Virus record (IMG/VR): IMGVR_UViG_3300042988_001121
Span: 64,001-128,000 of that record
Length of the DNA: 64,000 bases
Reading direction: 5' to 3' (one strand)
DNA from: a virus
Below, piece by piece: positions 24,302 through 62,023 of the stretch. The notes beneath the pieces are model-generated. The model searched no databases and was not told the DNA's origin. It worked only from the letters and a program-made list of their open reading frames with translations. A program made the position numbers and the translations under genes. Position 1 is the first letter of the stretch, and the number at the start of each line of letters is the position of its first letter.

Positions 24302-24335
24302 ATTATAACACAACAGAAGCAATGTGTAGATTATT
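24302..24335 (-). promoter_or_regulatory. early promoter cassette copy 1
   Basis: minus strand AATAATCTACACA-N-TGTGTTATAAT; contains the stop of the 24331 ORF. Confidence 0.85.
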
Positions 24336-24927
24336 TGATTTGTTTACCTGTTGTTCCAAGAAGAACTTTTGTGTGCCACTCGTCACCAATTTTACGAGAA
24401 TAGAGATTATTGTGTAACTCCGGGTGAGCCAACATTTCAGGATCAGTTGGATGTGGTCTACGAATTTCTTCGCCCTTGCTGGTATGATAATCATGTGCTT
24501 CATCGTAGGTCTTGGCAAACTCTCCGACGTTCATGTGTCTCTTACTGAAAGCAAGAGATTTTCCTGAAATTTCGACATGAGAACGATTTCTCTTAAGATC
24601 GTCCTTCATTATCGATGATAGAGCGTTCTTTCCTTCAGGTGAGCCATCTGTTGCAACGGCGACTCGTTTTCTTCCGTTCGAATCCTTGTACATCGCAACG
24701 GCATTGATTTTACCGTCCTTGCGACTTATTTTCCACATGGGAATCTTATTCACCATTTCCTCTGGTGAAGCGAATCCGCTGCCTTTTAATCCGCCCTGTG
24801 ATTCATAGGCTCGATGCAGCATCCCGTGGATTTCTTCGGCATGCCTTCTTTTTTCTTCCTCATGTTTAGGCAAGAAGTTTTTGAATGATTCGACTAAATG
24901 TAGGTACTGTGAAAATGTTTTCATCAT
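24331..24927 (-). CDS. hypothetical protein with capsid-targeting-like N-terminus
   Basis: MKTFSQYLHLVE resembles the T4 CTS MKTYQEFIAE. Confidence 0.7.
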   Translation of the reverse strand: MMKTFSQYLHLVESFKNFLPKHEEEKRRHAEEIHGMLHRAYESQGGLKGSGFASPEEMVNKIPMWKISRKDGKINAVAMYKDSNGRKRVAVATDGSPEGKNALSSIMKDDLKRNRSHVEISGKSLAFSKRHMNVGEFAKTYDEAHDYHTSKGEEIRRPHPTDPEMLAHPELHNNLYSRKIGDEWHTKVLLGTTGKQIK

Positions 24928-25460
24928 GACAACTGGTTATTGTCGTATTTAATTACATTAACAAGAATGTCAGCATTTTCTTCTGTCATCCTGTGACCAC
25001 CAGTTGAATAGACGATCTTACCAAGCCCGTTATAAATCTTGGCAGCGAATTGGCATGGAACTACATTGTCATCTGTGTTCAGGACAATAACTCTTGGTGT
25101 TGTTAGATTGATCCCTTTGATGCAGCACTTTTTGTATTGTTCAAGCACTTCATCTGTTACGCCGTATTTTTTTAATGATGTTGCTGGTAGCAGACTAGGA
25201 TTGCATAGATACAATGAAGAAGGAATGATGTTGGCTATCTGTTCTGCATACCATCCACCAAGAGAAGACGCAACGATCATCGGATACTGACCATTAGCGT
25301 TGATCTGTTCGACCATTCTTGCAACAGATTCTTTTGGGTTATTTGAATCGTACTCCAATGCAATGAATTCAATTTCTCTGCCAAGTTTCTCTTTGATCAT
25401 TGCACCGGTTGATGACTTCTTATTGGAACCAAAGCCATGAATGTAATAAACTGTGTTCAT
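24924..25460 (-). CDS. YqiA/UPF0227-like alpha/beta hydrolase (esterase)
   Basis: YIHGFGS, ASSLGG nucleophile elbow, DDNVV, GGH. Confidence 0.88.
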   Translation of the reverse strand: MNTVYYIHGFGSNKKSSTGAMIKEKLGREIEFIALEYDSNNPKESVARMVEQINANGQYPMIVASSLGGWYAEQIANIIPSSLYLCNPSLLPATSLKKYGVTDEVLEQYKKCCIKGINLTTPRVIVLNTDDNVVPCQFAAKIYNGLGKIVYSTGGHRMTEENADILVNVIKYDNNQLS

Positions 25461-25492
25461 TTAATTCTCCTGTTGGTTCTATTGTAACACAC

Positions 25493-25675
25493 TTATTTTG
25501 ATTTGAATGCATCAGCTAACTGAACATCCGTAAGAGAGTCAAAGAAGGCGATTGTTTTCTCTTGGCTGTTGTGATTAGCCAGAAAATAATTCACCTTCTT
25601 CCCTGTCTTGGTGTCCGTGAACGAGAATGTGTTTCCTTGGTGGCTGAATTGATAACGATCAGAATAGTTTTTCAT
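25493..25675 (-). CDS. hypothetical protein
   Basis: MKNYSDRY..., SD GAGGA upstream. Confidence 0.6.
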   Translation of the reverse strand: MKNYSDRYQFSHQGNTFSFTDTKTGKKVNYFLANHNSQEKTIAFFDSLTDVQLADAFKSK

Positions 25676-26651
25676 TATAAAAATCCTCAATAAGTTCTTC
25701 TAGTTCCTCTTGTGGCATGAGAATTATAACAGCCGGATCGAACCTAGAATCCCTTTTTATCATGCTCATAAAGATTCCTAATTCCTTGCCATCAAGACCA
25801 GTAATGATTCGGACTAGCTCTCCGTTCAGTTTGATTCGATATTCTTGTTTGAATAACATTTCCTTGATGACAGTCTCATATCGATCTTTAAGCCCCGGAA
25901 ACTTATCAAAGACAGCATTGAGTCGAGTCATATCTTTTTTCTTGGGAACACCAATCGCCTCGGGATGGTCGTCCAAGTATTTCAAGAACGCAATGTACTG
26001 TGGTCGTTTCTTGTCACGAGTTCTTGCGACTGCATTAAGATTCTCGAATGAATAAGATTCGCGACGGAATACAGGGCTGGTGGTGACATAGTGATACATG
26101 TCTTCTAATGTATCAAACCCTTTATTGAAGGTATCGGTATCAAGCCCCACCAATTCAAGAAACTCGTCATGATCCAATGTTACCAATAGTTCGGTATAAA
26201 GGTGATCCTTATCGCGAACCGGTAGAAGAAGTCCAGTATGACCGTGTTTCAGCCCATAATGCTTCGCCAGATTTCCTAGTAGGTTTCCGAGGTCGCCATT
26301 ATTGAAATACGCCTTAGCATAGTCGAAAGACGAAGAAGGAACAGTAATAAAATCTATTTGCAACTCACGATAATCGAAACTTGCAACGCTTCCGTTAATG
26401 AAAATGTCTTTAGGAGCGAATCCGATACCGTTGAGAACATTCTCGTTAATCGGGAAACTTACCAAAACATCCATGTCGCCGAAGGATTCTTTTTCGCCGA
26501 CATTCTCAAGGACATGGTAACGTAGATTGAATGAAGGATGAAATTTTGAAATGTAAGAATCAAGAAGTTTACTTACTTCCGAGACACGCTCAAGATAATC
26601 GTCTTTACTCATTCTACGGGTCGTAGTATTCTTTAATGCATTGCCGCCCAT
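25659..26651 (-). CDS. Pol-beta-superfamily nucleotidyltransferase-like protein
   Basis: MGGNA N-terminus; KESFGDMDVLV (G-D-x-D) and a later QIDFI acidic residue. Confidence 0.7.
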   Translation of the reverse strand: MGGNALKNTTTRRMSKDDYLERVSEVSKLLDSYISKFHPSFNLRYHVLENVGEKESFGDMDVLVSFPINENVLNGIGFAPKDIFINGSVASFDYRELQIDFITVPSSSFDYAKAYFNNGDLGNLLGNLAKHYGLKHGHTGLLLPVRDKDHLYTELLVTLDHDEFLELVGLDTDTFNKGFDTLEDMYHYVTTSPVFRRESYSFENLNAVARTRDKKRPQYIAFLKYLDDHPEAIGVPKKKDMTRLNAVFDKFPGLKDRYETVIKEMLFKQEYRIKLNGELVRIITGLDGKELGIFMSMIKRDSRFDPAVIILMPQEELEELIEDFYNEKLF

Positions 26652-26660
26652 GATTACCCC

Positions 26661-26945
26661 TTACTGAACTTGTGCGTCAATGAAACGGATCAGGTCTTCA
26701 GCAAAGACGCCCTCAGAAGAAGCATCTTTTTTGATGACACCCGCACGAATGCGAATGAACTCAATGTCATAGAGGTCAGTTGCTTCGTTATAACGAATCA
26801 CAACATTGCCTTTCCACTTTGCCATTCCGCTTGAACGAAACTGCAACCCATTTCCAATATTAACCAAGTCCTTTGCTCCCCAAGCAAACAGAGCCATTGG
26901 GTCAAGAGTTTTGATCTGTGTCAGGATTGTTTTTGCGATTGTCAT
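26661..26945 (-). CDS. hypothetical protein
   Basis: True start MTIAKT directly after promoter cassette. Confidence 0.75.
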   Translation of the reverse strand: MTIAKTILTQIKTLDPMALFAWGAKDLVNIGNGLQFRSSGMAKWKGNVVIRYNEATDLYDIEFIRIRAGVIKKDASSEGVFAEDLIRFIDAQVQ

Positions 26946-26979
26946 TTTGGACTTTCTGTGTTTCGTTGTTGATGTAGTT

Positions 26980-27014
26980 ATTGTATCACATAAAACTTTT
27001 ATGTGTAGATTATT
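26980..27014 (-). promoter_or_regulatory. early promoter cassette copy 2
   Basis: AATAATCTACACATAAAAGTTTTATGTGATACAAT. Confidence 0.9.
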
Positions 27015-27312
27015 GAATCGATCCTTTTCTGAATGTTGGAGTTTCTTTACCAACACACGAACCACGAACGCCGCTACCATTGACCAGCATTTCAACTAAA
27101 CATTCTTCTTCATCTGACACAAATCTCCAGACAGACCATCCAATCTGTCTGACTCCATCTGGTTTCAATGAAGCAACTACCAGATGGTAATCTTTGACTC
27201 CAATGCTTTTCATTGCATCAGCAGCTTGTCCAGAGTGAATGCTCAGAAAAATCTCGTTCCTGACTTTTGGTCGGTTGGTCAGAGTTTTAACCACCTTATC
27301 GTAGAGCGACAT
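27010..27312 (-). CDS. hypothetical protein
   Basis: MSLYDKVV...; stop lies inside the promoter cassette. Confidence 0.6.
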   Translation of the reverse strand: MSLYDKVVKTLTNRPKVRNEIFLSIHSGQAADAMKSIGVKDYHLVVASLKPDGVRQIGWSVWRFVSDEEECLVEMLVNGSGVRGSCVGKETPTFRKGSIQ

Positions 27313-27347
27313 TGAATGTGTTCCCATTGAAGTTGACATAGTGGGTT

Positions 27348-28142
27348 TCATTTGATGAATTCCTTGCATTTACTCAGTGCAGCCTGACAGTTTAATCTTG
27401 TAATGTACTCAGGTGGATTATAACATAATCCGTATATCATTCCTGCAACTGCGGCAACTGAATCTGAATCACCGGAATGATGGATAGACAATTCTAGGAG
27501 TCTATCAAAATCAGCGCCAGCGTTGATAAAAGAATAGATTGCCATGTCAACACATTCTGTTGCTACCCACCCTTGCCCGAGTTCACTGATATTCAATGCT
27601 GACTCGATCCGATAAGGAAGTTTATTATAGTAGAGATAATCCACCAACGTATCGATTGCAACTCGATTATTTTGGTGATGGTGCGTAATCTCGGCTGATT
27701 CGTACATGGATTTTCTGACAATCTCGGGATCATCAGAAACTGTAAGAAAAGGAAGCAACCGCATCACAGAACCGCAACCGTAACTATTATTGCGGTTGAC
27801 CATTCCGTTATGCAGTCTATAGAGAGAACTCAGACAAGTGTTTCCCGGCGCAGCAACTCTTGCCATCGCTGGATCAGAAGAAAACACGGAATCGGATTCT
27901 ATTCCTACCTGACCTTTCCACCAATTGATGTATGCATGTTTTACATCGCCGTTATGCAAGCCCTCGAATCCAAAAACTGTCATCTGAGTATCGTCTGTCT
28001 CTGATAGAACAGAATATTTTGCGTAATCAAGAATTTGCTTCTTAGTGAAGTCTTCTTTGTCCTTGAATTCAAATGGCTCCCCTACTGCATCAGCAACAGC
28101 AAGACACAGCAGGGAATCGTGAATTTTACTTGGTGAGAACAT
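27348..28142 (-). CDS. ADP-ribosylglycohydrolase (DraG/ARH family)
   Basis: LAVADAVGEPFEF, TDDTQMT, GCGSVMRLLP, GDSDSVAAVAG. Confidence 0.93.
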   Translation of the reverse strand: MFSPSKIHDSLLCLAVADAVGEPFEFKDKEDFTKKQILDYAKYSVLSETDDTQMTVFGFEGLHNGDVKHAYINWWKGQVGIESDSVFSSDPAMARVAAPGNTCLSSLYRLHNGMVNRNNSYGCGSVMRLLPFLTVSDDPEIVRKSMYESAEITHHHQNNRVAIDTLVDYLYYNKLPYRIESALNISELGQGWVATECVDMAIYSFINAGADFDRLLELSIHHSGDSDSVAAVAGMIYGLCYNPPEYITRLNCQAALSKCKEFIK

Positions 28143-28473
28143 AATTTTTGTCGTAGGAACCGATTACGATTCGATTGTACCACGAAACATCAAAATAATC
28201 TGTCATCACATCAGAATTATCGTGATAACCTTCTTTCATGATAGACAGTGCTGCATTCAGATAATCCTTAGCAGCACCGCTGAAGTTTTTGTCGATCCAA
28301 TAATGGTTTACATCGCAATAGTCGTGACCGAAGTCAATTGAGCCTTGCGTGATTCTCAGTGTCAACTCAGAACTGTTTGAGCCTGAGAAACGTGCCTTGA
28401 CTCCAAATTTTTTATTCAACTCTTTCAGAGCAACAGATTTAGTAGCAACTTCGGTTTTAGTGATGTAAGCCAT
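28126..28473 (-). CDS. hypothetical protein (LPD29-like)
   Basis: DNSDVMTDYFDVSWY motif; start MAYITK after SD GGAG. Confidence 0.6.
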   Translation of the reverse strand: MAYITKTEVATKSVALKELNKKFGVKARFSGSNSSELTLRITQGSIDFGHDYCDVNHYWIDKNFSGAAKDYLNAALSIMKEGYHDNSDVMTDYFDVSWYNRIVIGSYDKNYVLTK

Positions 28474-28506
28474 TTTGAACTCCATTTACGTTTCGTTGAT
28501 GGAGTT

Positions 28507-28541
28507 ATTGTATCACAACTAAATTTTATGTGTAGATTATT
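28507..28541 (-). promoter_or_regulatory. early promoter cassette copy 3
   Basis: AAATAATCTACACATAAAATTTAGTTGTGATACAAT. Confidence 0.9.
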
Positions 28542-28707
28542 TTGATGATTTAATTTGATTATTCGGATGCAACAGCCATTTTTCGCCTAACTTCTGTTTT
28601 GCTTCCTCAAGCCGAATCTCATTACGCTGGCGCAGAGCAATCAAATCTGCCTCTGATACAAATACGGATGGTTTCTTGACTTCAAAGAATTTTTTAAAGA
28701 TGTTCAT
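28537..28707 (-). CDS. small hypothetical protein (not in ORF track)
   Basis: MNIFKKFFEVKKPSVFVSEADLIALRQRNEIRLEEAKQKLGEKWLLHPNNQIKSSK*; stop is the TAA of the cassette. Confidence 0.7.
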   Translation of the reverse strand: MNIFKKFFEVKKPSVFVSEADLIALRQRNEIRLEEAKQKLGEKWLLHPNNQIKSSK

Positions 28708-29377: not shown

Positions 29378-29396
29378 TTCGTTTTCTCCTGCCTCT

Positions 29397-29430
29397 ATTG
29401 TACCGGGTTTCTTTTTATGTGTAGTTTATT
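29397..29430 (-). promoter_or_regulatory. early promoter cassette copy 4 (variant)
   Basis: AATAAACTACACATAAAAAGAAACCCGGTACAATAG. Confidence 0.75.
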
Positions 29431-31977: not shown

Positions 31978-32010
31978 TTTTAACTTTCGCATTTCGTTGT
32001 CGATGGAGTT

Positions 32011-32044
32011 ATTGTATCACAGAGAAACTTTATGTGTAGTTTAT
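32011..32044 (-). promoter_or_regulatory. early promoter cassette copy 5
   Basis: ATAAACTACACATAAAGTTTCTCTGTGATACAAT. Confidence 0.85.
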
Positions 32045-32328
32045 CCTGAAACAGAATCAGGTGAGCCACCAACGATGTGTCCAGAATAGTAACCATCGAA
32101 ATTATCTCCAATTCTGGCTAACTGAACCCCATCAACTATATCAGTGCCACTTCCAGAAACAATGACGCCTGTATGACCACATGCAGCACGTACAGTATCA
32201 CCGACTCTTGCGACACCAATACCATTATCAATAACATCAGGACTACAGCTTACAATGGCTCCTGTCTGTGCCTTATGTTTCTTACAGTATCCTACTGTCG
32301 AATCGCCTAACCTTGCAACTGGAATCAT
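32041..32328 (-). CDS. PAAR-repeat spike tip protein (T4 gp5.4-like)
   Basis: PVARLGD, GVARVGD..CGH, QLARIGD. Confidence 0.92.
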   Translation of the reverse strand: MIPVARLGDSTVGYCKKHKAQTGAIVSCSPDVIDNGIGVARVGDTVRAACGHTGVIVSGSGTDIVDGVQLARIGDNFDGYYSGHIVGGSPDSVSG

Positions 32329-37888: not shown

Positions 37889-37924
37889 TTTAGGTTTCCT
37901 TCCAAGTTTTGTTGCGATGGAGTT

Positions 37925-37958
37925 ATTGTATCACATAGAAAAATATGTGTAGATTATT
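37925..37958 (-). promoter_or_regulatory. early promoter cassette copy 6
   Basis: AATAATCTACACATATTTTTCTATGTGATACAAT. Confidence 0.9.
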
Positions 37959-39553: not shown

Positions 39554-39576
39554 GTTAATCCTTGTTTTGTGAATCT

Positions 39577-39610
39577 ATTGTAACACAGGAAAACTTATGT
39601 GTAGATTATT
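39577..39610 (-). promoter_or_regulatory. early promoter cassette copy 7
   Basis: AATAATCTACACATAAGTTTTCCTGTGTTACAAT. Confidence 0.9.
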
Positions 39611-39962: not shown

Positions 39963-39986
39963 AACAACTCCTGTTTTGTTGCATCT

Positions 39987-40020
39987 ATTGTATCACATAA
40001 AGTTTTATGTGTAGATTATT
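39987..40020 (-). promoter_or_regulatory. early promoter cassette copy 8
   Basis: AATAATCTACACATAAAACTTTATGTGATACAAT. Confidence 0.9.
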
Positions 40021-42369: not shown

Positions 42370-42399
42370 TTTGGACTCCGTTTCATTGTTGATGGTGTT

Positions 42400-42432
42400 A
42401 TTGTATCACATAAATTTTATGTGTAGATTATT
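42400..42432 (-). promoter_or_regulatory. early promoter cassette copy 9
   Basis: AATAATCTACACATAAAATTTATGTGATACAAT. Confidence 0.9.
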
Positions 42433-46956: not shown

Positions 46957-47193
46957 AAACTTTTGGTAAATATTATATAGTTTTTGGTTGGATTATTTAT
47001 TTATATATTATATTCAGGCAATCCGTTGGAATAAACGCCGCGCTTCCAATGATATCCAGAAGTATCGGTGACTTCAACAACTTCCCCGCATCGAGTCACA
47101 TAATTTCCTGCGCCATCAATGATTCGAGGAAAAGAAATGAAAAACGCTTCATACGGTATGTTTGCCACGATAAACTCCTGTTTTGTTGAATCT

Positions 47194-47225
47194 ATTGTAT
47201 CACATGAAACAGTTTATGTAGATTT
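47194..47225 (-). promoter_or_regulatory. early promoter cassette copy 10 (variant)
   Basis: AAATCTACATAAACTGTTTCATGTGATACAAT. Confidence 0.75.
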
Positions 47226-47447: not shown

Positions 47448-47472
47448 GATTAACTCCTGTTTTGTTGAATCT

Positions 47473-47505
47473 ATTGTATCACAGGCAAACTTATGTGTAG
47501 ATTAT
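47473..47505 (-). promoter_or_regulatory. early promoter cassette copy 11
   Basis: ATAATCTACACATAAGTTTGCCTGTGATACAAT. Confidence 0.9.
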
Positions 47506-48102: not shown

Positions 48103-48133
48103 TTTGAACTCCGGTTTCGTTGTCGATGGAGTT

Positions 48134-48168
48134 ATTGTATCACAGAGAAACTTTATGTGTAGATTATT
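48134..48168 (-). promoter_or_regulatory. early promoter cassette copy 12
   Basis: AATAATCTACACATAAAGTTTCTCTGTGATACAAT. Confidence 0.9.
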
Positions 48169-48854: not shown

Positions 48855-48880
48855 TTTAGTTTCTCCGTGTCATTGAATCT

Positions 48881-48914
48881 ATTGTAACACAGAGAAACTT
48901 ATGTGTAGATTATT
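48881..48914 (-). promoter_or_regulatory. early promoter cassette copy 13
   Basis: AATAATCTACACATAAGTTTCTCTGTGTTACAAT. Confidence 0.9.
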
Positions 48915-49230
48915 TCATTTCTTGCCGATTTTGTAGGCGCATTTCAATGTCAGCCACTGTATCTAATGCATCCGACACCGAGATTGTGTGACCAGATGCC
49001 GCAATCAGATGCACCACTGCCCGTAACCGTTCGCTTTGTAAAGTTGTCTCGGTATGCTTATTCAGATAATGTCGATATGCTTCTCGCATCTCTTTTGAAT
49101 TTGTAGCAACACTGGCGTCCAGTTCATTACATCGATTCATGAACTGATTTACTTGCCGTTCGAAATCGTTATTAACTAAAGCAACAAAATTATTGAGCTT
49201 TTCGTTCAGTTCACTCATTGTGATTGGTTC
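48910..49230 (-). CDS. hypothetical helical protein
   Basis: Start MEPITM; ends QEMK* in the cassette. Confidence 0.65.
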   Translation of the reverse strand, partial: EPITMSELNEKLNNFVALVNNDFERQVNQFMNRCNELDASVATNSKEMREAYRHYLNKHTETTLQSERLRAVVHLIAASGHTISVSDALDTVADIEMRLQNRQEMK

Positions 49231-49244
49231 CATTTTATTTCCTT

Positions 49245-50552
49245 TCAAAATTTATTTGCGCGTTCAACGATAGTTGAGAACGATTCATTGACCAATAAAT
49301 CGCCGTTATCGTAGACCTTACGCATCAATGAAGTGATCTGACGACCACCAACAGATTTTTTACCTGAGTCTGTGATAGGGTCTTTAACAGTATCGATCCA
49401 CGTATCACCAACACGAATAGCAGAAGTCTTCTGAGCAAAAGAATAAGTATCTCGATTGACGTTCTGAAGCAACCCACCGCCTGAGCCATAAATCACATTC
49501 TCGGGAGCATAATTGTATGCAGAGATTGCTCTCAACAGCATAGGCATCGTGGTTCGATTGATTCCATCACCCTGAAGAACCCCGACATTGTTGATAACAA
49601 TTTTACCTTTGCTATTAACAGTAAATCCGAATGCCAGTTTCAGTTTCTCCAGAATCCTTGGCAGCACAACAAATGGATCGCCACTATCAGGACGAACCAC
49701 AAACTTACCACCAGAGTTCTTGATAGCTTCAACAAATTCTGGCTCACACAACACGTCTACCTCACGATAAATGTCATATCCATCCATGACCGCCGAAACA
49801 ATGTTTCCGGGACGAAGTAAACTAATCATTCGCTTCAGATACTCTCGCTGACCTTCTTTGCCATAAGAACACTGGACACTGTGTTCACTAGCAAGAACGC
49901 TATAACCCGGCATATCGGCATTGTAGTTATCACGAAGGTACTTCAACGCAACCACATCGTCAGTTCCTTTGAAATAGATCAAGTGAGCAGCGCCACCTAC
50001 TTCGGCGGTTTGACGACTACTGACCCCGCGACTACCGAAGCTGTGCAAAGAGAAAGGAATCATGTCTGTCGCATCTGAATCTCGCTTATAAACAGCTTGA
50101 ATCTGATTGTAGCTGTATAGGTCTTGACTAGCAATAGTGGTTGGATACCAGATAGCCCGTTGCATCGATGTTTCAATGAATGAAGCAATCGAGAAACAAT
50201 CGGCATCATAGCATTCAACTGTTACCAATGGGTTCGATGAATCAACTACCTTGCCTTCAGGAACAGCAAAAATAGTGACAGGAAGATAACCACCATAGAC
50301 AGTAAGAACTTTCTCCCACATTGCGCGATTGAATGACAGTCCATGAGAAACAAGAATAGTCTCTGCCTCGTCAATGTCTTGTTTCGTAATAGGCTTCAGT
50401 AAGTTTTCTTTAATCCATCCCTGTAACCCAAATGGCACAATCTGTTCGTTCTTTTTACGCGCCTGTACGTAAGAAGACATTGCATTGGTTCCCTCGGGAT
50501 ACATCGCGAAGTGACTATTTTTATAACTGTCGGCATCAAGAATAATGTTCAT
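49245..50552 (-). CDS. nadV: nicotinamide phosphoribosyltransferase (NAMPT)
   Basis: DADSYKNSH, HSFGSRG, ASEHSV, VMDGYD, VRPDSGD, LQGDG, GSGGGLLQ, RDT..FA.K. Confidence 0.97.
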   Translation of the reverse strand: MNIILDADSYKNSHFAMYPEGTNAMSSYVQARKKNEQIVPFGLQGWIKENLLKPITKQDIDEAETILVSHGLSFNRAMWEKVLTVYGGYLPVTIFAVPEGKVVDSSNPLVTVECYDADCFSIASFIETSMQRAIWYPTTIASQDLYSYNQIQAVYKRDSDATDMIPFSLHSFGSRGVSSRQTAEVGGAAHLIYFKGTDDVVALKYLRDNYNADMPGYSVLASEHSVQCSYGKEGQREYLKRMISLLRPGNIVSAVMDGYDIYREVDVLCEPEFVEAIKNSGGKFVVRPDSGDPFVVLPRILEKLKLAFGFTVNSKGKIVINNVGVLQGDGINRTTMPMLLRAISAYNYAPENVIYGSGGGLLQNVNRDTYSFAQKTSAIRVGDTWIDTVKDPITDSGKKSVGGRQITSLMRKVYDNGDLLVNESFSTIVERANKF

Positions 50553-50568
50553 TTTTAACTCCTAAAAA

Positions 50569-51561
50569 TTACGCCATTGAAACGTATGCAGGAACTGGCG
50601 TGACGTTCAGCATCATACTTAAAATGTGTTTGTGATCATCGAACAATGGATAGTTGTTGATTGCATCTTTTACTGATACCCAACGTGTCTCGGCAGCGTC
50701 ATCACATCCATTTGCGCGAGGCAATGACCCATCTTTATCCAATTCAATTTTAAACATAACTACCAATGAATTGCGAGGGATACCAATCGATCGTTTCGGA
50801 TTATCGAACATTTTAGTTGAAACGACTGACCCACGAATAACTTTTTCAGGAACTCGGAGATTAGTTTCCTCGAATAGTTCGCGTACCGCACAATCAAAGA
50901 ATGTCTCGTTACGGTTCTTGAATCCTCCGGGAAGCGCCCATGTACCTGCACCGGGAGCAAATTTACGTTTAATCAGAAGAACATGACCTGCACACAGAAC
51001 CAATGCATCGGAGCAATTGAAATTCAATGTCTCGGGAAAAGGATAATCAGCAAAAAGTTCTTTTTCCTTCTGATAGAATTTCCAGTCGTCCATTACCGAT
51101 GAAGGCATATTATGGTCATTACTCATGAACATGGCAGTTCGTATATCGGTCGCCGAGCGACCATTCATTTGCTGATGAAGACCCTGAAACTTATAACCGG
51201 GGAACCAGTTCAGGTAGTCATTACCTTCTTTCATGTGCCCAAGAATAACAACTTCATCGCCTTCTTGATTATATTCATCGATTGTACGCTGAACATCTGC
51301 GATCCACTGTGTATCCGAATAGAGATAATCATTCAATGGCGCGATTTCTACTTCAATGTCGATTGAATGTGCGAAGTTTCGTATAGTGTTCTTACGTTCC
51401 GAGTAAGTCCAAGGATTTTTGACAGTTCGGGCGCTATTAGCAGAACCGACCAGAATAAGGATGCGATCAACCAAGGTTGATACTTGTTGAATCATTTTCC
51501 GATGACCATCGTGCAATGGCTGGAAACGACCGATAATAATACCAAGTTTTGCTTTTGACAT
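50569..51561 (-). CDS. nadM: bifunctional NMN adenylyltransferase / Nudix hydrolase (NadM-Nudix, NatV-like)
   Basis: GRFQPLHDGH; SATDIR; Nudix box GG..NRNETFFDCAVRELFEET. Confidence 0.96.
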   Translation of the reverse strand: MSKAKLGIIIGRFQPLHDGHRKMIQQVSTLVDRILILVGSANSARTVKNPWTYSERKNTIRNFAHSIDIEVEIAPLNDYLYSDTQWIADVQRTIDEYNQEGDEVVILGHMKEGNDYLNWFPGYKFQGLHQQMNGRSATDIRTAMFMSNDHNMPSSVMDDWKFYQKEKELFADYPFPETLNFNCSDALVLCAGHVLLIKRKFAPGAGTWALPGGFKNRNETFFDCAVRELFEETNLRVPEKVIRGSVVSTKMFDNPKRSIGIPRNSLVVMFKIELDKDGSLPRANGCDDAAETRWVSVKDAINNYPLFDDHKHILSMMLNVTPVPAYVSMA

Positions 51562-51596
51562 TTTAACTCCTAATTTGTCTTGATTTATTTATTGTA

Positions 51597-52142
51597 TCAC
51601 AGAAACTGATTCGGAATTTCACGAGAACCAAATTTTCCTGCCCATGATGCGATGTGTTGCTTTTCTTTTCGATAATAGTTCCAGTAAGACTCGACCGAAC
51701 TGTTTTTCACAACACAGTGCCCCGGCATTGCAGGAGTAGGTTCAGTAAATTTAGCCAGACTAATTTTAGTTGGTGCATTTTTCAGAACATCGTATAGTTC
51801 ACGACACTTGTGAATTCTACCATAACGATAAGTGTATTCTTCATTCAGGGCAACGAAAAGTGAGTAAAGCCAATCGTAATTTTCTTTTGATTGTCTTACC
51901 CACACGGTGCTAGGATGATTAACATGAGTTGACTTGTAGACCCTAGAATTACGATGATCAAATAAAACCCATTGCTTTGTTCTTCGACCAGAATCACTCA
52001 TGACAATTCTTTCCTCTCCATCAATGACACGATGGGCAGTGGAAAGTAATTGTGCGTACTCTGTGATCATTTTTATGCAATGCTTAGAAACGTGATACCG
52101 AGCCGCTTTGACTGGATCATTGTCAAGGTAGAAGATGTTCAT
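51597..52142 (-). CDS. pyrimidine-dimer DNA glycosylase-like (DenV-related) protein
   Basis: MNIFYLD..HCIKMITEYAQLLSTAH..HVNHPSTVW..EYTYRYGRIH. Confidence 0.8.
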   Translation of the reverse strand: MNIFYLDNDPVKAARYHVSKHCIKMITEYAQLLSTAHRVIDGEERIVMSDSGRRTKQWVLFDHRNSRVYKSTHVNHPSTVWVRQSKENYDWLYSLFVALNEEYTYRYGRIHKCRELYDVLKNAPTKISLAKFTEPTPAMPGHCVVKNSSVESYWNYYRKEKQHIASWAGKFGSREIPNQFL

Positions 52143-52362
52143 GATGCTGTTTTGCAACGGTTTTGTATTTCCGAATTGTTTCCACTAAATCAAATGCTGA
52201 TTCTAACAAAGATTCTTTGATGTAGATTGTTGCTTGACCACCACGAACATCATCTGCCTCGTTAATTATTCGTTTGAGCAGGTGATATAGATTGTCGCGT
52301 TGATGCAGGATGGTTTCGTAGTCAACCATGCCACTATCACGGGTATCAACATTTGAATTCAT
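52123..52362 (-). CDS. hypothetical protein
   Basis: Start MNSNVD after SD GAAAGG. Confidence 0.6.
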   Translation of the reverse strand: MNSNVDTRDSGMVDYETILHQRDNLYHLLKRIINEADDVRGGQATIYIKESLLESAFDLVETIRKYKTVAKQHHEHLLP

Positions 52363-52363
52363 G

Positions 52364-52564
52364 TTAAACCTTTCCTGCGTAGTCGGCACGCATGTACCAA
52401 TCAGGTGCAACATCTTGGTTGTTTCTTGAATTGTATTGCCGACAGAATTGCCGGGCAGATTCTTCGCTATCGAAGTATTTTACTTCGTCAACTTTCTGAC
52501 CCCAACCACGCTCTGACTCAATTATTTCTACTTTGTAGATGTTTCCGATTTTGATTTCTGCCAT
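52364..52564 (-). CDS. hypothetical protein
   Basis: IIESERGWGQK..YF.SEE.A motif; SD AGGAG. Confidence 0.75.
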   Translation of the reverse strand: MAEIKIGNIYKVEIIESERGWGQKVDEVKYFDSEESARQFCRQYNSRNNQDVAPDWYMRADYAGKV

Positions 52565-52589
52565 GATTAACTCCTGTTTTGTTGAATCA

Positions 52590-52623
52590 ATTATAACACA
52601 GGAAAAATTACGTGTAGATTATT
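52590..52623 (-). promoter_or_regulatory. early promoter cassette copy 14
   Basis: AATAATCTACACGTAATTTTTCCTGTGTTATAAT. Confidence 0.85.
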
Positions 52624-52815
52624 TTATTCAAACTTCTCACTTGGGTTGTATCTTCGCTTCATTCTCCAAAAAGTTCTCATCATGCAGCATGCAGGCGTTC
52701 TGTGCTGGCTTTGTGTGCCAATATGCAACCGTCCGTTATAAAACTTGCAAAATGGCTTTGGTTTTGGCAGCTTTTGCAGTAGATTGCTGGCGTATCGTTC
52801 ATAAGCTGGCGTCAT
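52624..52815 (-). CDS. hypothetical basic protein
   Basis: ATGA overlap. Confidence 0.55.
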   Translation of the reverse strand: MTPAYERYASNLLQKLPKPKPFCKFYNGRLHIGTQSQHRTPACCMMRTFWRMKRRYNPSEKFE

Positions 52816-53069
52816 TTACTTTCCTTCAAAACCTCGTTGATTTCCTCGATACCTTTGTCGCCCATGCACTGAAAAAGGCACATTGCAGGGACTCCGTACT
52901 CAAAGCATTTGCTGGCTTGCGATAAGGTCAACCCTCTTTTGCCGTGTACAAATTCGCTGTAATGGCTCTGTGATATTCCAATGACCTTTGCCCATTGCCG
53001 CTGTGTAAGCATGTATTGGTCACGTCTGAATTCCACTGCGTCGATGATTGATGGTAGCCCCACATTCAT
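52812..53069 (-). CDS. XRE/Cro-family HTH protein
   Basis: TQRQWAKVIGISQSHYSEFVHGKRGLT. Confidence 0.85.
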   Translation of the reverse strand: MNVGLPSIIDAVEFRRDQYMLTQRQWAKVIGISQSHYSEFVHGKRGLTLSQASKCFEYGVPAMCLFQCMGDKGIEEINEVLKESK

Positions 53070-53380
53070 CCTCCAGTCGCTTTTGCAATTACCACTGCTA
53101 GACCTTTACCTTGAATGAGCCAAGTAAATTCTTCGATAGGTATCACTGCGTCTGTGCTGTTTGCCCACCTATCAAAGTCAGCACTCGGACAAGACACATC
53201 AACATCCCATGTAGTCCCAAAATGAAACCGAAAAAGCCTGCTACCTTTTTTGGCGATGCAGCACCCTTTCCCATAAAAGTCTCTTGATACTTTAAATCCA
53301 TGTCTTTTTAGGAATGTCTTAAACGCTGCTCGCTTTTTAAATTTAGGGTGAGAGAACGTCCACTTGATTCTTCTCATCAA
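53066..53380 (-). CDS. hypothetical protein
   Basis: Ends IAKATGG*. Confidence 0.65.
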   Translation of the reverse strand: MMRRIKWTFSHPKFKKRAAFKTFLKRHGFKVSRDFYGKGCCIAKKGSRLFRFHFGTTWDVDVSCPSADFDRWANSTDAVIPIEEFTWLIQGKGLAVVIAKATGG

Positions 53381-53670
53381 GACTCTCCAGTCGCTTTTGC
53401 GATTGCTGCACGAGCCATAAACGCAAAATGGTTTATTGTTGTGGTGCTGTACGTAACTGCACCATCAGTCGAAGACTGTTCGACATGAACGTAGTCAGAA
53501 AAAGATTTAAGCGCCTCCAGTAAATCAGGTGCTGCTGCAATTAGTCGTGCATTGGCTGGTGATGGGTCTGTCACAAAGTCGCAGATAAACTTCTCGTCTG
53601 CACCAAAAAGGTATCCGACCTCATACTCGCAATCAGGCACAAATTTCCAAGGTGCTGGTGTGTGGCTCAT
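53377..53670 (-). CDS. MSHTP/ANARLIAAAP-family phage protein, copy 1
   Basis: MSHTPAPW..ANARLIAAAPDLLEAL..AAIAKATGES. Confidence 0.8.
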   Translation of the reverse strand: MSHTPAPWKFVPDCEYEVGYLFGADEKFICDFVTDPSPANARLIAAAPDLLEALKSFSDYVHVEQSSTDGAVTYSTTTINHFAFMARAAIAKATGES

Positions 53671-53807
53671 TTCATTTCTCCACGTATCTTGTTGTAAATC
53701 TCGTCGGCAGTCGAGCCTCTTTCCTCGCAATGACTTATAAATTCAGTCCAATTTGCACCAAGAAAATCCAGTAGTACATTTATCTCAAATTCATCCAATT
53801 CAGTCAT
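53667..53807 (-). CDS. small hypothetical protein ending GEMK (not in ORF track)
   Basis: MTELDEFEINVLLDFLGANWTEFISHCEERGSTADEIYNKIRGEMK*. Confidence 0.7.
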   Translation of the reverse strand: MTELDEFEINVLLDFLGANWTEFISHCEERGSTADEIYNKIRGEMK

Positions 53808-53833
53808 TTCATTTCTCCGTCAGAATGTGTGGC

Positions 53834-54040
53834 TCATAATTCCACCCCGCACATAGGGCAGTATGTGGCGAAGACTTGCACTGCATTTGACCTTGCTTTT
53901 GGATGCACCTTGCACGTAGCCAGCAATATGCGCTCTTTGTCATCGCTACCTAGACTAATTGTGTCCATCAATCTAGTGTTATATGGTTTTAAAAGCTCAT
54001 TGAGCTTTGCTACACAGTCGTGTTTTGTTTCTGCTGTCAT
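53834..54040 (-). CDS. small Zn-ribbon protein (MTAETK family), copy 1
   Basis: HDC ... YCPMCG. Confidence 0.75.
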   Translation of the reverse strand: MTAETKHDCVAKLNELLKPYNTRLMDTISLGSDDKERILLATCKVHPKARSNAVQVFATYCPMCGVEL

Positions 54041-54291
54041 TTCATGTCTCTTTCAGACTCTTTGATAACGGCTTCCATTTGCACGAAGGCTCTCAAATAC
54101 CCTTCAGCCTCAATCATTCCGGCTGAAAGACCTTGCTGCTTATAGTCATCATATAAAGCGCGAGCATTTTCAACGCCACTTAAAATGTCATGTTTAATCC
54201 ACTCATAGGACTCAATCGTTTTCTTTGCTTTTTCCAGCAAAGGAGGCTCTTTGTAATACGTGATGCCGTTAACTGTTATTGAGTTACTCAT
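54037..54291 (-). CDS. hypothetical protein
   Basis: Start at a GGAGAAATGAAATG joint. Confidence 0.7.
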   Translation of the reverse strand: MSNSITVNGITYYKEPPLLEKAKKTIESYEWIKHDILSGVENARALYDDYKQQGLSAGMIEAEGYLRAFVQMEAVIKESERDMK

Positions 54292-55764: not shown

Positions 55765-55788
55765 ACCATCTCCTGTTTTGTTGAATCA

Positions 55789-55823
55789 ATTATAACACAA
55801 GTAAAGGTTATGTGTAGATTATT
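55789..55823 (-). promoter_or_regulatory. early promoter cassette copy 15
   Basis: AATAATCTACACATAACCTTTACTTGTGTTATAAT. Confidence 0.88.
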
Positions 55824-56460: not shown

Positions 56461-56484
56461 AACAACTCCTGTTTTGTTGAATCT

Positions 56485-56518
56485 ATTGTAACACAGACAA
56501 ACTTATGTGTAGATTATT
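56485..56518 (-). promoter_or_regulatory. early promoter cassette copy 16
   Basis: AATAATCTACACATAAGTTTGTCTGTGTTACAAT. Confidence 0.9.
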
Positions 56519-57101: not shown

Positions 57102-57116
57102 CTAAATATGTCTTTC

Positions 57117-57124: not shown

Positions 57125-57158
57125 ACAAAAACAATTTAACAAAAATTATACACAATAA

Positions 57159-58361
57159 ATGCAACACAAGGCATATAAGTTTAGACTGTACCCAACGAAA
57201 GTTCAAGAAGCTCTCTTGAACCAAACTTTTGGGTGCGTTCGTTTCTTATGGAACCAACATGTTGCTGCTTTCAATAGTTTTTCTTCCTTCGGTCCAAACA
57301 AAATTGTAACATCAAAACTATTGAAGGACACAGAAGAATTTTCTTGGTTGAATTCTGTTTCTGCGGCTGCTCTGCAACAAAAAGATAACGATTTTTCTGA
57401 ATTTAAGAAGCAGTTTTTCTCCAAAACACGTAAAAAGAAAATTGAGCGCCCTAAATTCAAAAAGAAAGGACAGAAAGACTCTTATCGTCTTCCTAATCAA
57501 AAGTTTACTTTGGACCAAGAAACAAAAAGAATTCGACTCGAAAAAATTGGTAAAGTGAAAATAGTTTTAGACAAAACAATACCAGAAGGCGCTAAGTTTT
57601 TATCGGTAACAATAACAAAAAATCAAACCGGTGAGTATTACGCATCTGTTTTGGTTGAACAAGAAATAAGATGTAAGGAAACAACAGGAAATAGTATTGG
57701 TATAGACCTCGGGTTTATTGATTTGATGACTCTATCAAATGGAATGGTTATACGCAACCCAAGGTGGTTTCGTAAAAATCAAGCGAAGCTAAAAAGAAAA
57801 CAAAAATCATTAAGTAGAAAAAAGATAGGCTCTCGTAGGAGAGAAAAACAAAGAATTGTTGTTGCAAAACAGCATCTAAAAGTTGCTCGACAGCGAGAAT
57901 GGTATCATCATCAAATTTCATCGTGGTTGGTTAATAATTTTGACACTATTTGTATGGAAGACTTGAATTTGAATGGAATGAAAAAATTTCTAGGAAAATC
58001 TGTCAATGATGCCGGTCTTTCTAATCTAATGAATAAAATTGAGTATAAATCTAAGTGGTACGGAAGAACCTTCCATAAAGTGGATAGATTCTTTGCATCC
58101 TCAAAAACATGTTCTTCTTGTGGCAATAAAACAGCGTTTGGTATGGATGTGCGAGAATGGACATGTCAGGCGTGTGGTACATTCCACGACAGAGATTTGA
58201 ATGCATCAATAAACATTTTGAAAAAAGGTCTTAGTGACCTTTATCAATATACTTCGGCTGAGTTAACCGAAGTCATTGAACGTGGAGAAGTCGTAAGACC
58301 TAGATTGGGTGAAATTCATCCAATGGTGGCTACTTCTATGAAGCGTTTAGCGAAACTGTAA
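57159..58361 (+). CDS. tnpB: TnpB RNA-guided endonuclease
   Basis: KAYKFRLYP; GIDLG / CMEDL / DRDLNA; CSSC..CQAC. Confidence 0.96.
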   Translation: MQHKAYKFRLYPTKVQEALLNQTFGCVRFLWNQHVAAFNSFSSFGPNKIVTSKLLKDTEEFSWLNSVSAAALQQKDNDFSEFKKQFFSKTRKKKIERPKFKKKGQKDSYRLPNQKFTLDQETKRIRLEKIGKVKIVLDKTIPEGAKFLSVTITKNQTGEYYASVLVEQEIRCKETTGNSIGIDLGFIDLMTLSNGMVIRNPRWFRKNQAKLKRKQKSLSRKKIGSRRREKQRIVVAKQHLKVARQREWYHHQISSWLVNNFDTICMEDLNLNGMKKFLGKSVNDAGLSNLMNKIEYKSKWYGRTFHKVDRFFASSKTCSSCGNKTAFGMDVREWTCQACGTFHDRDLNASINILKKGLSDLYQYTSAELTEVIERGEVVRPRLGEIHPMVATSMKRLAKL

Positions 58362-58380
58362 AATTTACGGTTTTGCGTAA

Positions 58381-59728: not shown

Positions 59729-59730
59729 GA

Positions 59731-59985
59731 TTACCTCACAAAGACATTATGTTTTTCGATGTTCCACTTTTCTGTGATAGGACTACCATCAGCAGCTTCA
59801 TCAACACAAATGTAGGCAACTGTCTTCTTTACAATCGCATAACGAACGCCATCAAGTACATCGATTTCATGAGTGAATCCATTCTGGATCGCCCAAGAAT
59901 CCTTAGTCACTGTGTAAGTGAACCAGTTGCGAACATCTGATTCACGAAATTCACCTACTGTGTTCTGTGTTGGTTTGTAAGCCAT
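59731..59985 (-). CDS. hypothetical protein
   Basis: SD AGGAG; first gene after cassette copy 17. Confidence 0.75.
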   Translation of the reverse strand: MAYKPTQNTVGEFRESDVRNWFTYTVTKDSWAIQNGFTHEIDVLDGVRYAIVKKTVAYICVDEAADGSPITEKWNIEKHNVFVR

Positions 59986-60016
59986 TTTGGACTCCTAAGT
60001 TTGCTGCGATGGAGTT

Positions 60017-60050
60017 ATTGTATCACAGAGAAAAATATGTGTAGATTATT
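60017..60050 (-). promoter_or_regulatory. early promoter cassette copy 17
   Basis: AATAATCTACACATATTTTTCTCTGTGATACAAT. Confidence 0.9.
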
Positions 60051-60816
60051 TTGGATACCACTTACCGAATACTTGTACCGCTTTCAGGGCTTCCTTGTCA
60101 GCATACTCAATTCTATATTGTTGAACCATTCCCATTTCATTTACCCAATTGTTCACATATGCAGCAAGGAAAACATCGCCTGCGCCAATAACATCTACCA
60201 CATCAACTTCTGAATCTCGCTTCATCATTGATGTACAGAAGTTTCCGTCAATCCACATAGGAGGATTTTCCCCACGAGTAACAATCAATCTATTCGGTGT
60301 ATTGCCGTTCAAACGCTCAAATTCAATCTGATTGATTTTAAACACAATTCTCTTATATTGTGATATGTCAGATTTTTTCGTGTCACAAAATACGATGGTA
60401 TATGATGTGTTATCTAGATACTCCAGAAGTTCGTGTGTCACTGAACCTTTATTGTAATCGCATATAACAATAGCCTCTGGATGAAACGATTGAATGGTAC
60501 GTTCAACTTCTTCTATCGTAAAAGGCAGAACCGAATTTTCTGAATCTAGCCGCATCAACAGTTTAGTACCGTCCCAAAATCTAGTTTTTGATCCTGTCTG
60601 TCGTAGCAACGATTTAACTGTATTTCCGTAACTCTCTAGTAATTTTGCTACATAACCGCCCATTCCATCAGACACCCCGGAATCTTCTATTGAATCTCCG
60701 TCTATCCACAGCTTTGGGATTTCATTGCCATGACTCTCGGTCGTATATGTTGTTGTCTTATCTGATTTGATATCAATATCAAAACAAGAATCGCCGATAA
60801 CTAAAACTCTACTCAT
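60046..60816 (-). CDS. PfkB/ribokinase-family sugar kinase (RfaE/HldE kinase-domain-like)
   Basis: VLVIGD, KTRF, LMRLD, CDYNKG, VDVIGAGDVFLAA. Confidence 0.85.
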   Translation of the reverse strand: MSRVLVIGDSCFDIDIKSDKTTTYTTESHGNEIPKLWIDGDSIEDSGVSDGMGGYVAKLLESYGNTVKSLLRQTGSKTRFWDGTKLLMRLDSENSVLPFTIEEVERTIQSFHPEAIVICDYNKGSVTHELLEYLDNTSYTIVFCDTKKSDISQYKRIVFKINQIEFERLNGNTPNRLIVTRGENPPMWIDGNFCTSMMKRDSEVDVVDVIGAGDVFLAAYVNNWVNEMGMVQQYRIEYADKEALKAVQVFGKWYPK

Positions 60817-60825
60817 GTCAATTCC

Positions 60826-61293
60826 TTATGAACAAGACTTGGCAATGCAATATTTTTGAACATAGTTCTCTTTATTGCGATAAACAGTGATTCTATCATG
60901 AAAAGTGGAACCGGGCGCGATTTTCACTGTTATTCTTTGCTGGCTTCCGTCTTCGATTTTGTAGACCACGTACATATCATGGTGATGAACTGTTCTTTTT
61001 CGTCCCTTACTCGCATTTTCGGTTGTCTGGTAGTATTTCCCCTCTAGCCCGTCATAAATCGCCGTTGTCACTTCGTTCTCGGGCGTCATCTTGACACCGG
61101 TAGTAAATGATTTGTATGAAACAAACGATGTTAAAGCGACAATTACTCCCATCAAAAAGGAAACAATTGTTTCACCTTCCCATAAAGAAAAAAGAAACCA
61201 CAATGCACCCGCTGCTATTAAACAGCACACAACTAGACCAGAATGCATGTCAACGGTGTTAATTTCTGGCAATGGAGAAATGGAGTAGAACAT
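60826..61293 (-). CDS. membrane protein
   Basis: Two N-terminal TM segments. Confidence 0.7.
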   Translation of the reverse strand: MFYSISPLPEINTVDMHSGLVVCCLIAAGALWFLFSLWEGETIVSFLMGVIVALTSFVSYKSFTTGVKMTPENEVTTAIYDGLEGKYYQTTENASKGRKRTVHHHDMYVVYKIEDGSQQRITVKIAPGSTFHDRITVYRNKENYVQKYCIAKSCS

Positions 61294-61454
61294 TATAACA
61301 ACTCAAGAAATTTAGGTGGAATAGCAAAAGGGTTTGCTCGATTTTTGAATTTGACTAGTACCATGTTATTCTTCGAAAGACCAACAATGGTGCCGATTGT
61401 GCAAATGTGTTTCTTGAACTTCACGCGCCCGTAATAACGCTCGATCCATTTCAT
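61293..61454 (-). CDS. small basic hypothetical protein (not in ORF track)
   Basis: MKWIERYYGRVKFKKH...PPKFLELL*; TAATG overlap. Confidence 0.55.
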   Translation of the reverse strand: MKWIERYYGRVKFKKHICTIGTIVGLSKNNMVLVKFKNRANPFAIPPKFLELL

Positions 61455-61515
61455 GTTAATAGCACAAAAAGCACCGACCTACCTTTGCAGAAGTCGATCA
61501 TGTAGAGTTCTGGTT

Positions 61516-61965
61516 TCATCGTTGCACCTTGAATTTATAAAATGATTCCAGTGTCTTGATTTCTTCCGCTGTCAGTTTATCAAGAACTCTTTTCACGTTT
61601 TTATAGTCTTCCGAGATAGCAATGTCCAGTTTCTCATAAGAAAGAGCAGGAGCAAAATCTTTCAGGAAATTGATGGTCGATAACCTAGACAGATGTGAAT
61701 TTGCTCCGTACTTTGAATACTGAACAAGTTTTACTTGCAGCGCAGCAAGCCGCTTCTTATACAATTGAAAGTAGGTCACTTTCCGGCGATCATTGCGTTG
61801 CTGTTCTACTCGCTTCCATGCCCTGAACAACGGCACAACATCATACAGAAACTTATTGAGATTTCTTGTATTCACACCATCGCGTAACAGATGATGGTGA
61901 CCGTTGACCCAATAACGAGCATTGGTAATCATTTTTTCAAGAGCAAGCAATTGTTCGCTGTACAT
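61516..61965 (-). CDS. hypothetical basic protein
   Basis: SD AAGGA; first gene after cassette copy 18. Confidence 0.7.
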   Translation of the reverse strand: MYSEQLLALEKMITNARYWVNGHHHLLRDGVNTRNLNKFLYDVVPLFRAWKRVEQQRNDRRKVTYFQLYKKRLAALQVKLVQYSKYGANSHLSRLSTINFLKDFAPALSYEKLDIAISEDYKNVKRVLDKLTAEEIKTLESFYKFKVQR

Positions 61966-61989
61966 AATAATTTCCTTTTCGATGATGCT

Positions 61990-62023
61990 ATTGTAACATC
62001 ATCGAAAATATGTGTAGATTATT
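61990..62023 (-). promoter_or_regulatory. early promoter cassette copy 18
   Basis: AATAATCTACACATATTTTCGATGATGTTACAAT. Confidence 0.82.

Follow-up and report, generated by a model that had tools for sequence, protein, structure and literature searches.

We examined a 64,000-nucleotide stretch of viral DNA (the window), which corresponds to bases 64001-128000 of the 178,209-bp IMG/VR virus record IMGVR_UViG_3300042988_001121 (genome G000 below). Its subject here is a repeated intergenic unit, termed a cassette, which has the anatomy of an early promoter and whose conserved TAA is at the same time the stop codon of the preceding gene in 12 of the 18 copies in the window. The record has direct terminal repeats and a completeness estimate of 100%. 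It encodes a T4-type portal protein with only 52-55% identity to those of the best-matching cultured phages (cyanomyoviruses), and a megablast search of an 8-kb stretch against 50,697 cultured-phage records returned no match; G000 is a novel, uncultivated T4-like phage.

The cassettes lie at 24-62 kb of the window, in a minus-strand run of ~75 mostly small genes, and genes on the same strand are separated by a median of 8 nt. The recognisable genes of this run have typical T4-like early or auxiliary functions, and encode DNA and RNA ligases, NAMPT, an NMNAT/Nudix protein, an ADP-ribosyltransferase, a phosphoesterase, a PAAR protein and a DUF932 protein. The cassettes are listed below in window coordinates, with the position by which each copy is cited in brackets; protein tails are written up to the stop codon.

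Cassette 1 (24331), 24280..24333, minus strand: TAA at 24331-24333 stops gene 24331-24753/24927 (..QIK); putatively drives gene 23950-24279
Cassette 2 (27010), 26946..27012, minus strand: TAA stops gene 27010-27351 (..SIQ); 9-bp palindrome as spacer
Cassette 3 (28537), 28474..28539, minus strand: TAA stops the 56-aa gene 28537-28707 (..SSK); the only strong leader hairpin (-10.6 kcal/mol)
Cassette 4 (29426), variant, 29378..29428, minus strand: AACTACACAT, -10 box GGTACAAT, short leader; TAA stops a 302-aa gene (..SKK)
Cassette 5 (32041), 31978..32043, minus strand: TAA stops the PAAR-like gene 32041-32328 (..VSG)
Cassette 6 (37954), 37889..37956, minus strand: TAA stops the phosphoesterase gene 37954-38514 (..KTK); putatively drives the DUF932 gene 36923-37888
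Cassette 7 (39606), 39554..39608, minus strand: not used as stop; a TGA 12 nt earlier, in the frame of the cassette TAA, closes the upstream gene
Cassette 8 (40016), 39963..40018, minus strand: TAA stops gene 40016-40360 (..YKKK)
Cassette 9 (42428), 42370..42430, minus strand: TAA stops gene 42428-42856 (..SSK)
Cassette 10 (47223), variant, 47169..47225, minus strand: ATCTACATAA, without the first TAA; the 77-aa upstream gene stops at the second TAA
Cassette 11 (47502), 47448..47504, minus strand: TAA stops gene 47502-47744 (..KKR); class-2 leader
Cassette 12 (48164), 48103..48166, minus strand: not used as stop; preceded by a 240-nt ORF-free stretch
Cassette 13 (48910), 48855..48912, minus strand: TAA stops gene 48910-49233 (..EMK)
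Cassette 14 (52619), 52565..52621, minus strand: the upstream ORF ends at a TAA 5 nt earlier, within the A-rich stretch
Cassette 15 (55819), 55765..55821, minus strand: the upstream gene ends 60 nt earlier
Cassette 16 (56514), 56461..56516, minus strand: the upstream gene is closed 12 nt earlier by a TAA that shares the frame of the cassette TAA
Cassette 17 (60046), 59986..60048, minus strand: TAA stops the PfkB-like kinase gene 60046-60816 (..YPK)
Cassette 18 (62019), 61966..62021, minus strand: TAA stops the ADP-ribosyltransferase gene 62019-62813 (..ITE); the -10 box lies between the arms of a 7-bp inverted repeat

Copy number and stop-codon register

The cassette motif is (A)AAATAA-TCTACACAT-N9-11-TGTG(A/T)TA(C/T)AAT. 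A first-pass annotation of this DNA had described 18 minus-strand copies, 12 of them supplying the stop codon of the upstream gene, and had proposed an integron-like architecture in which the cassette captures genes and donates their 3' ends. Its pattern taken literally has no match in the window, because the single N written there stands for a spacer of 9-11 nt. With a variable gap, CTACACAT-N-TGTGWTAYAAT gave 14 exact minus-strand matches against none in 100 shuffles, and fuzzy scans together with direct reading of the sequence, from which the full count was taken, reproduced all 18 copies. The whole 178-kb genome contains 24, of which 5 are on the plus strand (genome 46.4-50.1 kb) and 19 on the minus strand (88.3-133.4 kb).

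The distance of each upstream stop codon was counted from the first base of ATCTACAC, the A adjoining the -35 box, with the following distribution.

Offset -2 (TAA in AATAATC): 12 copies, all in the window
Offset -3: 1 copy
Offset +7/+9 (second TAA, in CACATAA): 3 copies
Offset +14: 1 copy
Offset -7: 2 copies
Offset -14, in frame with the motif TAA: 2 copies
Farther away: 3 copies

Thus the upstream stop lies within 14 nt of that base in 21 of 24 copies, and it is the conserved TAA itself in 12, which are exactly the stops listed by the first-pass annotation. Each of these in-register stops is the TAA immediately 5' of TCTACA and ends a called gene of 56-302 aa; the 56-aa ORF that the annotation had recovered by this rule (28537-28707) has a homologue in a relative. 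The second TAA closes genes of another frame and gives them the tail IYT. As had been stated, nine of the 12 in-register proteins end in Lys or Arg (QIK, SSK, SKK, KTK, KKK, SSK, KKR, EMK and YPK; the other three end in SIQ, VSG and ITE), compared with 64 of 251 genes genome-wide (p=0.0003). Under a generous null, in which every gene enters the motif in a random frame and is in register with a chance of 1/3, the proportion in the window is higher than expected (12/18, p=0.004), with a genome-wide value of 12/24 (p=0.07).

Anatomy of the cassette

Similarity among aligned copies starts ~4-6 nt before the TAA and stops at the next start codon, which makes the repeat coextensive with the intergenic space (~55-70 bp). 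Within it, an A-rich stretch (AAAA) is followed by the TAA, a TCTACA -35 box, CAT, a total spacer of 16-18 bp, an extended -10 box (TGnTA(C/T)AAT), one of two leaders (AACTCCATCG... or AGATTCAACAAAACAGGAG) and, at the 3' end, a ribosome-binding site (RBS; GGAG or AGGA) and ATG or GTG. The two leader classes, already distinguished by the first-pass annotation, were recovered by alignment of the copies. TCTACA agrees with TTGACA at 4/6 positions and with T4 TTTACA at 5/6, and a generic sigma-70 promoter scan lists copies as TCTACA-17-TACAAT with an upstream TG. The called gene starts 52-67 nt past the first base of the motif in all 24 copies except one (276 nt), and the genes served have typical early functions (ADP-ribosyltransferase, NAD salvage, ligases). 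Judged by its -35 box, extended -10 box, leader and RBS, the unit is the predicted early promoter of the phage.

In the class-1 leaders at window positions 28471-28506, 48100-48133 and 59983-60016 (minus strand), AACTCC just past the -10 box can pair with a GGAGTT RBS, a fold that is significant in only one copy. If transcription starts past AACTCC, the RBS may be hidden only in read-through transcripts. T4 genes e and soc have an RBS that is hidden in read-through transcripts. A CRP-like reading of CACA..TGTGA was rejected from the sequence alone, as the half-sites are in the wrong order.

Protein tails encoded by cassette bases

Comparison of homologous proteins shows that the last 1-4 residues of several of them are encoded by the cassette. 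Three ~110-aa paralogues share a core ending ..V(I/T)xY; two of them, with no cassette adjoining, end in ..YE and ..YESISS, whereas the product of gene 40016-40360, which adjoins a cassette, ends in ..YKKK, encoded by AAG AAA AAA TAA TCTACAC. The same is seen between orthologues from the related genomes described below. One family ends in ..SKIVIAE in genome G001, where no cassette adjoins, but in ..AKIIYT in G000 and ..DQIIYT in a third lineage, and both IIYT tails are encoded by ATA ATC TAC ACA TAA, i.e. by the cassette itself. Another family ends in ..SRARPH in G001 and in ..SNLIYT where a cassette adjoins. The proposal that the cassette donates 3' ends is therefore correct for the last 1-4 codons.

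Recurrence of the arrangement in diverged lineages

The exact motif was not found in IMG/VR. Nor was a sibling of G000: a ligase-based search was negative, and exact-protein matches were only Logan contigs 100% identical to the window. A portal-based search identified a 192-kb complete IMG/VR genome with TAATTTACACAT (G001), whose portal protein is 66% identical to that of G000. The two genomes are distantly related, with reciprocal best hits for only 93 of 251 genes, and only ~10 of the ~75 genes at 24-62 kb of the window have an orthologue in G001. The most over-represented words of G001 are TAATTTACACATAA. At least 28 copies precede TGTrGTATAAT, with the consensus nnTAATTTACACAT, and the TAA at offset -2 closes an ORF of at least 40 aa in 18/28 (p=0.0008 under the same null; G000 and G001 pooled, 30/52, p=0.0003). 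The TAA is kept in 25/28 copies, whereas the bases before it are not conserved and the tails have no Lys bias, indicating that the motif begins, on its left, with the TAA. Orthologues of the phosphoesterase and DUF932 genes on either side of cassette 6 are present in G001, each with a cassette on the same side, but they are not neighbours there.

Scanning metagenome contigs with the G000 motif yielded eight contigs of a third lineage, whose proteins are 35-60% identical to those of both genomes and whose upstream stops are at -2 or +9. The same arrangement thus recurs in three diverged lineages. In the first 50 kb of T4, a small sample examined by a simple scan, upstream stops are 2 to 59 nt from the -35 box, with no fixed register.

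A further class of cassette is present in G001 (loci L082-L091; e.g. genome 142645, 146025 and 40190), with the ATG only 6-7 nt after TATAAT; this suggests that the corresponding early mRNAs may be leaderless. In gene b226 of G001, which is conserved in the related record G003, the reading frame spans the entire promoter, with its stop in TATAATAA.

Apparent recombination at cassettes

Between genomes, cassettes at orthologous junctions have an identity of 75-77%, lower than the 87-92% that each of them reaches with a copy at a non-orthologous site of its own genome; resemblance within a genome thus exceeds resemblance at matching positions. Near-identical leaders occur only within a genome, and cassette 17 is near-identical to a plus-strand copy at genome position 46368. 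These patterns suggest that cassettes exchange sequence within genomes.

A usable comparison pair is provided by G001 and a 38-kb record (G003), which is collinear with positions 121-152 kb of G001 and 72-93% identical to them in nucleotide sequence. Four differences between them touch cassettes. In the first, G001 has the order b170-[degenerate cassette]-b171..b173-[cassette]-b175-[cassette]-b176, and G003 has b170-[cassette]-b176; the difference is a 5.8-kb insertion/deletion bounded by two cassettes. The left part of the G003 cassette is the b170 flank, and the part from the -35 box to the leader is that of the b176-proximal G001 cassette, 5.8 kb away. This cassette is therefore a hybrid, indicating either that two cassettes crossed over or that the segment was inserted between them. 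The tail of b170 changes accordingly, from a read-through of the degenerate cassette in G001 to ..KKIYT in G003. In the second difference, b183, located between two cassettes in G001, is swapped for an unrelated 73-aa gene in G003. The remaining two are extra genes in G003, of 184 aa between b221 and its cassette and of 59 aa between b229 and its cassette. In both, the sequences diverge exactly from the stop codon on the left to the cassette TAA on the right, and in the latter case GAAAT is repeated at both ends. A stop-to-stop deletion of this kind produces an in-register junction directly, without any capture mechanism.

As a recombination joint, the cassette thus has one apparent crossover that altered a 3' end and one gene swap between cassettes in its favour, while the expectation that breakpoints would map specifically to the TAATCTACAC motif was not borne out statistically. 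Across 41 orthologous-anchor intervals of G001 and G003, 6/8 of those with a cassette and 16/33 of those without are rearranged (p=0.25). Cassettes share in gene turnover but do not appear to be its privileged site.

The eight motif-bearing metagenome contigs, at ~2x coverage, looked like sibling pairs. In one of them (L093:1-667), phage DNA (33% GC) is joined to a bacterial ribosomal protein S7 (rpsG)-fusA operon at the EF-G start (57% GC), with the junction just past the start codon after a cassette and with ATGGCACGT shared. A phage-borne S7 gene was rejected in favour of an assembly chimera at ~2x coverage, and on account of this chimera and of the coverage, two breakpoints at cassette 3' edges in these contigs were discarded as evidence.

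Other features of the window

An IS607-type pair and further TnpB-like genes, which have no relation to the cassettes, are present within the early-gene array, along with several other features.

43060-44331, plus strand, and 57159-58361, plus strand: two TnpB-like genes with 37-52% identity to the TnpB at 45102-46337
45102-46337, minus strand: TnpB/OrfB_IS605 gene, adjoining TnpA in the IS607-type pair
46363-46956, minus strand: serine recombinase TnpA of the same pair
48165-48405: ORF-free 240-nt stretch (none >36 aa) directly upstream of cassette 12
49245-51561, minus strand: NAD salvage pair (NAMPT and an NMNAT-Nudix fusion)
62019-62813, minus strand: Alt/Mod-like ADP-ribosyltransferase gene

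The NAD salvage pair is the sole adjacent gene pair of the region that is kept across all three lineages. The surroundings of the ORF-free stretch are tightly packed; its predicted fold is no better than that of shuffled sequence (z = -1.15), and Rfam gave no match in the window, this stretch included. Two Logan assemblies of SRR35181316 (L100 and L101), which are independent of the window record, are 100% identical to window 48133-54044 and match ~32.0-47.2 kb by gene content. Their contig ends fall inside cassettes, as expected of repeats in assemblies, and they confirm the gene order through six internal cassettes.

Comparison with known systems

Among described systems, the promoter-early stem-loop (PeSL) cassette comes closest; it is a repeated early-promoter unit found in hyperplastic regions of RB49/phi1, T4/PST and KVP40/nt-1 (Arbiol et al. 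2010, PMC2839356; Comeau et al. 2014, PMC4122927). The likeness drawn by the first-pass annotation between the array and such early-promoter cassettes is supported. In both systems a sigma-70-type early promoter (-35 box, ~17-bp spacer, -10 box), repeated many times (24 copies here), fills the gap between small genes, and the unit runs from an upstream stop in an A/T-rich stretch (here AAAATAA) to the RBS and ATG of the next gene. Likewise, the cassettes cluster in hyperplastic regions where small genes without known function abound (here genome 46-50 kb and 88-133 kb), and copies appear to recombine, a hybrid cassette marking a multi-gene insertion/deletion in the relatives G001 and G003. That the upstream stop codon is the first element is also already known, as it is listed in the legend of Fig. 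2 of the PeSL paper (Arbiol 2010, PMC2839356). A literature search on promoters overlapping stop codons in T4-like phages found only this paper and unrelated work. The differences from PeSLs are that G000 units have no consistent stable stem-loop or terminator, that their stop is a fixed, conserved TAA abutting the -35 box rather than lying merely somewhere in an A/T-rich stretch, and that they hold a second in-motif TAA for another frame. In addition, unlike in PeSLs, the -35 region is a 14-nt block kept across three diverged lineages.

T4 early promoters (GTTTAC -35 box, A-rich upstream element, TATAAT) resemble the cassettes in their -35 box (TCTACA/TTTACA), in their A-rich upstream bases, in their tandem arrangement on one strand, and in belonging to a phage with an ADP-ribosyltransferase. 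They differ from them in the lack of a fixed stop register within the small sample scanned, and whole leaders are not common to T4 promoters. T4 also offers parallels for regulatory and coding signals that share bases, namely the overlapping punctuation ATGA and TAATG and the read-through hairpins of e and soc, which are echoed by the pairing of bases just past the -10 box with the RBS in some class-1 leaders. In G000, however, the overlap joins a stop codon and a promoter, and the leader pairing is significant in 1/11 tested.

Integron gene-cassette arrays likewise consist of small genes separated by a repeat (attC) that can hold a stop codon. Unlike integrons, the present array has no IntI, attI, Pc or folded attC; its units carry a promoter each, and the mode of exchange looks homologous or microhomology-driven.

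Origin of the stop-promoter junction

We consider it probable that in this novel T4-like phage the units serve as early promoters, in the form of PeSL-type cassettes that fill the whole gap between two genes. The promoter would stand at zero spacing from the preceding gene, with the TAA at -38 to -36 doubling as its stop. The register may arise and persist by precise stop-to-stop gene deletions at short repeats, and also by homologous crossovers between cassettes in which the stop is carried along. Cassettes would then act, in the way suggested for PeSLs, as preferred but not exclusive joints when genes of the hyperplastic region are shuffled, with no dedicated recombinase involved.

Several observations weigh against this explanation. 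The putative promoter activity is read from a consensus, and recombination at G000's own cassettes is suggested by its relatives and by apparent exchange between copies. The stem-loop that gives PeSLs their name is weak or absent: spacer hairpins (CACA..TGTG) have a mean z-score of -1.3, with 6/24 at or below -4 kcal/mol, the leader fold is significant in 1/11 tested (copy 28537, -10.6 kcal/mol, z = -4.25), and a terminator scan found no terminator-like site coinciding with any cassette. The lack of significant enrichment of G001/G003 rearrangements at cassettes, given above, belongs here as well. Between G000 and G001, synteny is broken at 3/3 cassette and 4/6 non-cassette junctions, an underpowered comparison within hyperplastic regions.

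The same lack of enrichment would be expected if these were ordinary early promoters with no special recombination role, whose spacers were lost by deletion pressure under headful packaging until each gene's own TAA stop overlapped an A/T-rich position in front of the promoter. We consider such an origin by compaction alone unlikely, but it remains a serious rival because the fraction of copies in register (50% for G000, 64% for G001) differs little from the fraction of all stops that are TAA (53% and 58%, respectively). It is also in keeping with the small median gap, with the TGA-ending genes that are not in register, with the nine G000 copies in which the A-rich stretch and TAA are present but the TAA is not used, and with the two clean stop-to-stop gene-sized differences between G001 and G003, one of them at a 5-nt repeat. 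It does not account for the hybrid cassette and the cassette-flanked gene swap in G003, nor for the concerted evolution of cassettes within a genome, which extends to spacers and leaders that are functionally free; the T4 genome, no less compact, has no fixed register in the small sample scanned, and G001 keeps the TAA in 25/28 copies without the surrounding A-rich stretch.

A quite improbable alternative is that stop usage is a by-product of a regulator site. The 14-nt block TAAT(C/T)TACACATAA is longer than the sigma-70 -35 contact needs and may bind an extra phage or host regulator; it is near-invariant across three lineages whose proteins are only 35-60% identical, and in most copies a CACA...TGTG inverted repeat flanks the spacer, extending to palindromes of 6-9 bp in 5-6 copies. 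However, the extended -10 box already accounts for the TGTG half, most copies do not conserve the palindrome, and no candidate binding protein was identified. Furthermore, three copies (47223, genome 133367 and G003 21337) lack the first TAA and have the second as the stop of the upstream gene, which suggests that the first is dispensable for promoter function. Still less credible, in our view highly improbable, is the integron analogy of the first-pass annotation. Read as site-specific capture, it would make the cassette the attachment site where circular gene cassettes are inserted by a dedicated recombinase and receive their 3' ends from the site. The array does resemble a run of cassettes, with a stop codon inside the repeat, protein tails made from cassette bases, and some gene gains and losses ending exactly at the TAA. 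Yet a search for tyrosine recombinases (PF00589) found no match in the complete 178-kb G000, although all control genomes matched, and its only serine recombinase belongs to the IS607-type TnpA/TnpB element. Folding of 24 spacers and 11 leaders revealed no attC-like conserved imperfect hairpin, the inverted repeats being weak and inconsistent; every unit has its own promoter and RBS, unlike promoterless integron cassettes, and many gene gains and losses occurred at cassette-free junctions. These cassettes do not, then, reveal a new recombination system.

Significance

With the units read as PeSL-type early promoters, cassettes of this kind are extended to an uncultivated branch of T4-like phages. 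They provide a clear-cut example of bases that belong to a promoter consensus and a stop codon at once, with the register held constant between diverged genomes. They also offer nucleotide-level examples of two routes of gene turnover beside a promoter, cassette-cassette crossover and precise stop-to-stop deletion. The annotation rule that a gene ends at the TAA before TCTACAC/TTTACAC helps in calling small early genes and their true C-termini.

It is possible, if rather doubtful, that selection has shaped the clade-wide promoter consensus itself into gene punctuation, favouring both the TAA joined to the -35 box and the one nine bases further on as built-in stops. If so, each cassette would be a self-contained joint of gene end and gene start, and any frame brought to its left edge by crossover or stop-to-stop deletion would be closed within 0-4 codons. 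Gene shuffling would thereby become cheaper, and zero-length spacers between genes would be possible.

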